A stretch of 43,051 nt of DNA, from the sequence record OR844702. The stretch is one strand, 5' to 3'. Source of the stretch: Escherichia phage ECO104 4-5-2. The position numbers were made by a program, and so were the translations under genes. The notes below the pieces were generated by a model, which was not told the DNA's origin, ran no database searches, and saw only the letters and a program-made list of their open reading frames with translations. The first letter of the stretch is position 1, and every line of letters starts with the position of its first letter. Shown one piece after another: positions 5,664 to 5,841 of the stretch.

Positions 5664-5841
5664 CTGAAGGTAGCGCTGATAACCAAGACGCTACAGCCAA
5701 CAAGGAAGTGAACGCCCTCTGGTCCCGCCCAGTCCCTGTATCGGGAGAAGCGATGAGAGTTCAAGAGACAAAGAACTTGCTAAGGAAGTCTCTTAGTTAA
5801 GCAACTTCGCAGTGAGGTTGCAGAATTAAGAGATTAATCAA
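5664..5841 (+). promoter_or_regulatory. Conserved structured RNA leader element, copy C (of 3)
   Basis: Homologous to 39118..39294 and 40951..41128. Five hairpins with compensatory changes between copies (for example GTAGCG/CGCTAC here against GGGTAG/CTACCC and GTAACG/CGTTAC). Ends in the SD attaagag before ATG 5842. Confidence 0.5.

Follow-up and report, generated by a model that had tools for sequence, protein, structure and literature searches.

Structured leader RNA repeated behind host-type promoters of a phiKMV-like Escherichia phage: an apparently new RNA family with a possible role in first-gene expression

Background

Why should a leader of early type lie inside the replication module of a lytic phage, and what could it do there? 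The question is raised by Escherichia phage ECO104 4-5-2 (sequence record OR844702; the whole stretch of 43,051 nucleotides (nt) that was analysed is referred to here as the window). An earlier note on this DNA had described three copies of a structured leader element and had singled out the third, copy C, as far from the early region. We found that copy C is a true third copy of the element, that the element is a two-module structure formed at the RNA level by the + strand, and that it is apparently an RNA family not previously described. As to its role, we lean, with somewhat less than even confidence and partly by analogy, towards a cis-acting device that would control the expression of the first gene behind it after transcription.

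Early gene control is regarded as purely promoter-driven in phiKMV-like phages, some of which are therapy candidates for use on E. coli, Enterobacter and Klebsiella. With a large RNA structure on three host-promoter units, control would gain a further layer, either post-transcriptional or at the level of elongation, and a compact system of ~200 nt with alternative pairings and natural compensatory variants could serve as a model for the timing of host-takeover genes in lytic phages.

The leader element and its three copies

Each of the three copies in the window has a sigma-70-type promoter on its 5′ side and, on its 3′ side, a small gene with its ribosome-binding site:

39060-39299, + strand: promoter TTGACT-17-TATAGT (39060-39088) and leader copy A (39095-39299), 94.2 bits, leading into an open reading frame (ORF) of 33 amino acids (aa) at 39295-39396
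40860-41132, + strand: promoter TTGACG-17-TATAGT (40860-40888) and leader copy B (40929-41132), 92.5 bits, leading into ORF47 at 41129-41272
5643-5845, + strand: leader copy C, nhmmer E 4e-59, minimum free energy -59.3 kcal/mol, z = -2.69 against shuffles

A direct-repeat search matched 5648-5784 with 39102-39238 and 40935-41074 at 66-78% identity. Each copy scored E ~1e-59 with an nhmmer profile built from the three, and a degenerate core pattern of 31 nt matched exactly these three copies in the window, with 0.00 matches expected in shuffles. The presence of a third copy in the replication module, after the HNH endonuclease gene that follows the DNA polymerase gene and before two small ORFs (5842-6042 and 6042-6230), was thus borne out. 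Its start, previously put at 5664, had to be moved, since conservation begins at ~5643, about 20 nt further 5′, and reaches the start codon at 5842. The copy, at 5643-5841, makes up the whole predicted 5′ untranslated region from the promoter-like site P2 (see below) to the start codon. For every full copy, likewise, a promoter-like site lies just ahead of its beginning and a start codon marks its end, and the genes behind the leaders are mutually unrelated, which suggests that the leader serves expression generally and not one gene product.

RNA structure of the leader

The window genome is kin of Escherichia phages vB_EcoP_PAS7 and vB_EcoP_P64441 (PAS7 and P64441), both assigned to Slopekvirinae, the enterobacterial phiKMV-like podoviruses, in the GenBank taxonomy. 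Further copies were taken from these two phages (three sites each), a 43-kb IMG/VR contig (three), a metagenome contig (two), the IMG/VR fragment L017, the phages phiKDA1, SDFMU_EhYP (EhYP) and Entb_48 of the sister genus Koutsourovirus, and one metagenome fragment.

RNAalifold on the three window copies alone gave 49 pairs, 20 of them with compensatory changes. Over the seven helices, 95-98% of the cells were paired, as compared to 76-81% in shuffles. For the 3′ module (16 copies) the value was 95.4%, against 75.8% in column shuffles and 39-47% with slid partners, and 17 of the 23 pairs had changed on both sides. The 5′ module occurs in different types, described below; its type-1 form was 97.2% paired (76.8% in shuffles), and 13 of 19 pairs were compensatory in the type-2 form. 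Invariant G-U pairs (16/16) indicate that the element acts as + strand RNA, and, since copies within one genome are ~70% identical with compensated stems, selection acts on the RNA fold and not only on DNA identity. The parts of copy C are as follows:

5658-5699, + strand: 5′ module part 1, closing helix UGGC/GCCA (5658-5661 with 5696-5699) around a conserved CUGAAGG and hairpin Hb
5670-5694, + strand: hairpin Hb (5670-5675 with 5689-5694), loop CUGAUAACCAAGA
Between Hb and Hc, + strand: purine-rich linker with GUGAACG
5719-5746, + strand: 5′ module part 2, helices Hc (5719-5722 with 5729-5732) and Hd (5733-5736 with 5743-5746)
5′ of He, + strand: GAAGCGAUGAG, part of the 3′ module
5757-5778, + strand: hairpin He, GAGUUC/GAACUU, conserved loop AAGAGACAAA, five of six pairs changed on both sides in 16 copies
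5779-5784, + strand: segment X, GCUAAG, which can pair with Y
5787-5835, + strand: long interrupted hairpin, Y (5787-5798) with Z (5824-5835), upper stem Hf (5801-5808 with 5814-5821)

Part 1 of the 5′ module was 100% paired, 5 of its 10 pairs having changed on both sides in the eight type-1 copies, and Hc and Hd were 91-97% paired (4/8 pairs changed on both sides). The long hairpin, with a conserved 2x2 internal loop AA/AG between Y:Z and Hf, was 95.6% paired, had 12 of 17 pairs changed on both sides and reached -24.2 kcal/mol in copy C. Z holds the Shine-Dalgarno-like UAAGAGA (5827-5833), 8 nt 5′ of the ATG at 5842, and doubles as the Shine-Dalgarno in 14 of the 17 copies.

In most copies Y (CUUAG) is complementary to both Z (UUAAG) and X (CUAAG). 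Y:Z together with Hf forms an interrupted hairpin of 20-22 base pairs (bp) that contains the Shine-Dalgarno, while X:Y forms a short hairpin that leaves it free. X and Y were 100% paired among 16 copies, with pair 54-73 being GC in 13, CG in 2 and GU in 1. All three segments had changed together in the site C copies of PAS7 and of the related sequence L025 (X CUAAC, Y GUUAG, Z UUAAC), and in copy A of P64441 U73 is paired with A111 (Y:Z) and X keeps its G, giving a G54-U73 wobble. The energy of Y-Hf-Z was -16 to -24 kcal/mol in 15 of the 17 copies and -10.9 kcal/mol in copy C of L025; that of X:Y was about -5 to -6 kcal/mol in 15 of 17 and -4.7 kcal/mol in copy C of the window. Because Y-Hf-Z is far more stable, the Shine-Dalgarno is expected to be buried at equilibrium.

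Against Rfam 15 at the gathering threshold, only two group I introns matched in the whole window, and at E up to 10 positions 5450-5900 gave only a noise match to mir-676 (15 bits) and no riboswitch. No similar sequence was found in 5,426 E. coli genomes and no match in 100,044 species genomes (one genome per species); a locus search anchored on the polymerase C-terminus gave nothing beyond two contigs already found. Pattern scans of metagenomes and species genomes returned mostly chance matches, the true copies among them being only L036, L041 and L044, and two further candidates (L050 and L051) were rejected at 13-15 bits, as compared to 76-94 bits for true copies. No description of the element was found in the literature, and the leader is a candidate new family for Rfam.

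Other identities were tried and rejected. Coding on the minus strand (ORFs 5452-5703 and 5480-5764) is not conserved among copies, which differ by indels of 1-3 nt. For a hammerhead ribozyme, GAUGAG and a stem are present but the GAAA side is lacking. The RfaH ops-like GGTAGCG lies in Hb, whose stem co-varies and is therefore constrained as RNA; for boxA, only CUUA is conserved, and it is base-paired; and the GGA motifs of a CsrA sponge are not kept between types. Pairing of X with a conserved 5′ AUAGC fails as AUAGC is absent from copies B and C, and a T7 epsilon enhancer, UUAACUUUA, is found only in the variant shared by the site C copies of L025 and PAS7.

Distribution of the leader and history of site C

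The 5′ module is of type 1 in the window, L025 and L041, of type 2 in PAS7, P64441 and L017, and of a third form in Koutsourovirus. All sites of a genome carry the same type (3/3, 3/3, 2/2, 3/3 and 3/3), which hints at a matching trans-acting partner or at concerted evolution, a pattern that with five genomes is suggestive only. In the Koutsourovirus form (L031 2090-2170, L046 1720-1790 and L045 2580-2640) we noticed, by eye only, an apparent H-type pseudoknot that shows compensatory changes about a conserved UGAAAGA(A)G loop. Its helices would be GGUCC/GGACC with GGGUAU/AUACCC in phiKDA1, UGGC/GCCA with AACCCU/AGGGUU in KKP 3828 and GGGUC/GGCCC with GACGAUU/AAUCGUC in Entb_48.

Site C is syntenic, with promoter(s), element and a homologue of ORF62 (6042-6230) at the same place in PAS7, P64441, L025 and L017. 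The element is not linked to the endonuclease, as P64441 has no HNH gene at this site. The DNA polymerase gene of phiKDA1 is followed at 2 nt by the ORF62 homologue (38% identical), with neither promoter nor element, and in EhYP the gap at this position, 114 nt long, is without a copy. The single copy of Koutsourovirus lies in the early region, 5′ of a homologue of the gene behind copy B, which points to promoter, leader and that gene as the ancestral unit and to sites A and C as later duplicates. On sequence comparison, site C would be either a duplication specific to one clade or a unit lost from Koutsourovirus, and we regard it as probably an old duplicate of the ancestral early-region unit, fixed in the PAS7/S.Kent clade and reshuffled by recombination.

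The site is a mosaic. PAS7, itself of type 2, is nearest to the polymerase end (86%) and the HNH gene (83%); L025 alone matches the 5′ module (91%), the 3′ hairpin most resembles P64441/L017 (95%), and ORF66 (5842-6042) is unique. At site C each of the four combinations of 5′ type with 3′ variant is represented, and thus recombination occurs inside the element. The suggestion of a modular or mobile cassette holds for modularity over evolutionary time, as the unit was duplicated and is mosaic, but not for recent mobility, as it sits at the same place in four relatives. The synteny check proposed in the note thus showed the unit kept at the same site in those four and absent from Koutsourovirus, which retains the small gene.

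Promoters and genomic context

Two promoter-like sites and the stretch between them precede copy C:

5493-5521, + strand: promoter-like site P1, TTGACA-17-TATAGT, 11/12 matches, with AAATAAGTG 5′ of it as at promoter B
5522-5607, + strand: P1-P2 stretch with a small GNRA hairpin ACCG-GAAA-CGGT at 5554-5565, from the alignment with PAS7
5608-5637, + strand: promoter-like site P2, TTGACA-18-TAAGAT, 10/12 matches, predicted start ~5643-5646

P1 had been recognized as a consensus promoter before, and it is indeed present. The 136 nt behind it, taken to be a spacer, exist but are not inert: P1 and the P1-P2 stretch are 84-85% identical in PAS7, L025 and L017, and the second site, P2, lies within. 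The predicted start of P2 is ~15 nt 5′ of the first helix, the same layout as in copy A with its promoter at 39060-39088. P2 is kept at 87-96% in PAS7, L025 and L017, and it resembles the Koutsourovirus promoter ahead of the early-region copy of those phages. The P1-P2 stretch, which looks like the 5′ start of type-2 leaders, is possibly the remnant of a further promoter-leader unit. Only ten sites with at least 10/12 matches occur on the + strand of the window, and those outside long ORFs are the ones ahead of copies A, B and C. Among intergenic sigma-70-type sites, the strongest of the genome are those that the copies directly follow. In the ~14 kb between promoter B and the gene for the phage RNA polymerase (RNAP), P1 and P2 stand alone as strong sites.

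The window ends, 1-77 and 42975-43051, are identical (77 nt), so that the window is a circularly permuted assembly in which the early region (~37-43 kb) runs on into position 1. The genes follow in the order helicase, DNA polymerase (split, with a group I intron), HNH endonuclease, small ORFs, nucleases, RNAP and structural genes. The RNAP gene (11772-14351; 85-89% identical to the PAS7/P64441 RNAP) lies 3′ of the replication genes and directly 5′ of the structural genes. This position of a single-subunit RNAP gene, and a gene order that is the same as in PAS7, are those of a phiKMV-like (Slopekvirinae) phage. In phiKMV-like phages host RNAP transcribes the early and DNA-replication genes from strong sigma-70-like promoters (PMC7552054), and the phage RNAP, encoded just 5′ of the structural genes, transcribes the late genes (PMC7552054; see also PMC10914365). 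A host-type promoter in the replication module is thus what this gene order leads one to expect, and the earlier premise that it is out of place among middle genes is not supported. Neither is the proposal that the small genes need host-RNAP expression of their own, as Koutsourovirus keeps the ORF62 homologue with neither promoter nor element, and ORF62 therefore does not intrinsically require its own host promoter.

Proposed function and alternative explanations

If the leader controls its first gene after transcription, host RNAP would transcribe leader C from P2, and from P1 further 5′, and the leader would set the timing and amount of first-gene translation together with the maturation of the mRNA 5′ end. 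The long hairpin would block initiation until opened. Its most likely opener would be host RNase III, which would cleave the long hairpin, unmask the ribosome-binding site and release a structured 5′ RNA of ~150 nt ending in the X:Y hairpin, while a putative partner would dock at the 5′ module. Such cleavage would explain both the retention of the hairpin where the Shine-Dalgarno lies outside it and the conservation of X:Y, as the 3′ hairpin of the released RNA. In a variant that needs no nuclease, X:Y would form first on the nascent RNA and open a delayed-folding window. Delayed folding through a kinetic trap hairpin controls the maturation gene of MS2. By analogy, the early small hairpin, here X:Y, could delay the stabler fold that buries the Shine-Dalgarno, here Y:Z, and leave a brief window for translation; MS2, however, is an RNA phage genome, and its likeness to this DNA phage mRNA was judged by energies only.

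In favour of the RNase III step we count the size and shape of the long hairpin. By covariation and folding, Y-Hf-Z has 10-12 bp, a 2x2 loop and 8 bp, and the T7 RNase III sites (R0.3, R0.5, R1, R1.1 and R1.3), folded for comparison, share this plan of lower stem, internal loop and upper stem of ~20 bp. They too are conserved hairpins present in several copies in host-RNAP transcripts of a T7-supergroup phage, and T7 R0.3 lies in the leader 5′ of the first gene. Dunn and Studier reportedly determined the positions of T7 RNase III cleavage and its effect on translation of 0.3.

Several points weigh against control of the first gene in this way. By eye, the hairpin has no sequence similarity to the T7 sites, whose core CUCAAGGUCRCUC...GAGUGGCCUUUAUGAUU it does not resemble, and the element model R1 gave no match in T7 1-7000. 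It differs from them also in being confined to leaders, with none between other genes, and in standing behind a multi-helix module of ~130 nt with the competing X:Y pairing. Three of the 17 copies (L025-C, PAS7-C and phiKDA1) have their true Shine-Dalgarno 10-25 nt further 3′ and yet keep X, Y and Z, so that occlusion of the Shine-Dalgarno is not the whole function. The 5′ module occurs without the 3′ module in PAS7-B, P64441-B, KKP 3828 and SDFMU_Pec and hence has a function of its own, which this proposal does not name. As the family is small (~12 genomes, partly close relatives), only few independent events underlie some of the covariation counts. Promoters, transcript ends and cleavage alike are predicted.

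The main rival, unlikely as we judge it, is processive antitermination of the nut or put kind, in which the nascent leader, alone or with a phage protein, would modify host RNAP so that terminators are read through; at site C this would boost the distal replication genes and the phage RNAP gene. The position of the copies behind the strongest intergenic promoter-like sites, with P1 and P2 alone in ~14 kb, would suit it, as would a conserved terminator-like hairpin 3′ of the site C unit (6235-6262), though the terminator-like sites are weak consensus matches. One 5′ type per genome despite mosaic flanks at site C is a further point for it, nutL and nutR of one lambdoid phage sharing one boxB specificity; the uniformity, however, rests on five genomes, and A and B are merely 2 kb apart. 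The ancestral copy is linked with a gene for a small basic protein (41269-41691), which differs by type and recalls N behind nutL, but the protein has no informative fold or family. Against antitermination, the leader has no boxA or boxB. A single-stranded boxA (CGCUCUUA / GCUCUUUA) was not found, only CUUA(G) in Y being conserved and paired in both structures. Nor was a boxB with a 5-bp stem and a GNRA-like pentaloop, Hf having 7-9 bp and variable loops of 3-5 nt (GCAGU, AUGUC, CAG and AUA). Antitermination would also not need the element to be so tightly fused to the ribosome-binding site as it is in 14 of the 17 copies. The put RNAs of HK022 (putL and putR) are cis-acting structured RNAs that follow the early promoters, occur in several copies per genome and have stems maintained by covariation; they are ~70 nt with two stem-loops and are not fused to a ribosome-binding site. 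Compared by description, the present leader differs in its ~200 nt and seven helices and in ending in a Shine-Dalgarno.

A precedent for control of the first gene is the lambda N leader, in which, as summarized in PMC5725501 (citing Wilson 1997 and 2002), an RNA site that binds protein is joined to a structured region, modulated by RNase III, on which N translation depends. Going by that summary, the two appear alike in a leader of ~200 nt directly behind an early host promoter, in a 5′ RNA for recognition by protein or RNAP followed by a structured region that governs (here, would govern) first-gene translation, and in a recognition RNA present in more than one copy per genome with a small basic protein gene behind one of them. 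They differ in that boxA and boxB are missing here in sequence and shape, that three full copies, each with its hairpin, occur in a lytic phiKMV-like podovirus, and that antitermination and RNase III cleavage are here only predicted. Rather unlikely, the three leaders and the 41269-41691 protein would form a genome-specific RNA-protein system that reprograms host RNAP or ribosomes, a delayed-early switch like that of lambda N and nut; the two 5′ types would then be two different specificities, and every site of a genome would have to carry the same one.

Less probable again is a stable RNA derived from the 5′ leader that acts in trans on a host or phage factor, be it as regulator, sponge or decoy, with the mRNA context secondary. 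Candidate noncoding RNAs of this origin have been reported from virulent phages including the phiKMV-like LUZ19 (PMC10914365), the 5′ module stands alone in several leaders, X:Y would give a protective 3′ end after cleavage, and three copies per genome would raise the dose. Neither target nor partner was identified, however, the full copies have no terminator behind the structured part, and loops that differ between types make a shared host target not obvious. Improbable in our view, the leader could matter mainly as part of a mobile cassette of promoter, leader and gene, the repeats being recombination linkers like the PeSL elements of T4-type phages. These documented precedents, structured sequences that are associated with promoters and repeated, border small variable ORFs and lie at recombination junctions (PMC2839356, PMC4122927). 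Likewise, site C is a mosaic with all four 5′/3′ combinations, the window-only ORF66 and ORF47 are variable ORFs at junctions exactly behind two leaders, and copy number is 1 in Koutsourovirus as compared to 3 in the window clade. But four relatives have site C at an unchanged position, and compensated stems between copies ~70% identical place the RNA fold under selection. PeSLs are composites of a short stem-loop (terminator) followed by an early promoter, whereas the structure here is 3′ of the promoter, within the predicted transcript, and a multi-helix RNA of ~200 nt selected for pairing.

A metabolite- or ion-sensing riboswitch, with the 5′ module as aptamer and X/Y/Z as expression platform, is very improbable. 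Mutually exclusive pairings that free or hide the Shine-Dalgarno, with X, Y and Z co-varying, do speak for it, together with the multi-helix 5′ domain with conserved unpaired bases and the pseudoknot seen by eye in the Koutsourovirus form. On the other side, the 5′ module differs among type 1, type 2 and the Koutsourovirus form, which leaves no common ligand pocket, a partner 5′ of X was not found, Rfam gave no riboswitch match at E up to 10, and the downstream genes share no metabolic theme. That the element is non-functional, a dispersed DNA repeat or a chance similarity, is scarcely credible: nothing specific favours it except that the family is small, and it is contradicted by compensatory changes in seven helices, strand-specific G-U pairs, the shuffle and slide controls and the fixed position between promoter and start codon.

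Genes and other features around the leader units

The following features surround copy C:

5013-5489: HNH endonuclease gene, Pfam HNH_3 E 3e-9
5842-6042, + strand: ORF66, first gene behind leader C, only in the window genome, weak match to PHROG 36213
6042-6230, + strand: ORF62, directly behind the leader in relatives and kept in Koutsourovirus without a leader
6235-6262, + strand: terminator-like hairpin and UUUUAUUAU, closing the unit directly 3′ of ORF62, hairpin and U-tract kept in all five genomes

ORF62 has 38-59% identity in PAS7, P64441, L025, L017, phiKDA1 and EhYP, and ORF66 gave no tblastn match in 8 relatives. None of the relatives has a homologue of ORF66 or ORF47 (66 and 47 aa), and each of the two lies exactly between a leader and the gene that follows the leader elsewhere, overlapping the next start codon (TAATG and ATGA). 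From their placement, this looks like gene gain at the leader-gene junction, and new small genes would thus enter these genomes directly behind the leader.

The small basic protein gene at 41269-41691 (PHROG 9286; core PEGTEARK ... INSYF.SKS.TPKG) is linked to the leader in all genera. Its product has an N-terminal extension of 34 aa in type-1 genomes and not in type-2 genomes; it has no Pfam family and no PDB relative, and its AF2 model has a pLDDT of 58. The gene at 6398-7582, 3′ of the site C unit, encodes an exonuclease-like metallophosphoesterase of 394 aa (PHROG 284, E 6e-52), which gave no tblastn match in PAS7, P64441, phiKDA1 or EhYP; these carry a phosphoesterase of ~328 aa there, and the window gene looks like a non-orthologous replacement. 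Between the site C unit and this gene, a further TTGACT-containing stretch (6323-6360) is shared only with L025.

Positions 5400-6400 are 100% identical to GenBank OR850875.1 ('Salmonella phage S.Kent 1-2-1', unannotated), and the DNA polymerase C-terminal exon (4097-5026) is 99% identical to the PAS7 polymerase. The two group I introns (Rfam RF00028; 51 and 65 bits) lie at 3356-4042, where an HNH endonuclease ORF (3468-4010) lies inside the intron that splits the DNA polymerase gene, and at 31551-31804, within the terminase large subunit gene; PAS7 has neither insert.

Some further motifs were seen near the promoters. GACAAGCAGTAA overlaps the -35 region of P2 (window 5600-5630) and forms tandem repeats in L017 (~9160-9215, minus strand), and a similar motif, AAGCAGTAAGAAAG, lies 5′ of the Koutsourovirus promoter; they could be a putative protein-binding site on DNA. 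Between promoter B and leader B there is an extra G+C-rich hairpin (40897-40931, CCGGGAGGCG...CGCCTCCCGG), also present in L041 and without a U-tract. A promoter segment of 36 nt, AAATAGTTGTTGACTTCCCTGATTTAAGTAGTTATA, is doubled at 100% identity at 38734-38769, where it precedes an ORF without a leader (38814-39050), and at 39051-39086, where it is predicted to drive leader A. Finally, a 31-nt repeat with TATAAT (37571-37601 and 38214-38244, 90% identical) lies just 5′ of the genes at 37616 and 38238 and may be another promoter or leader motif shared by the earliest genes.

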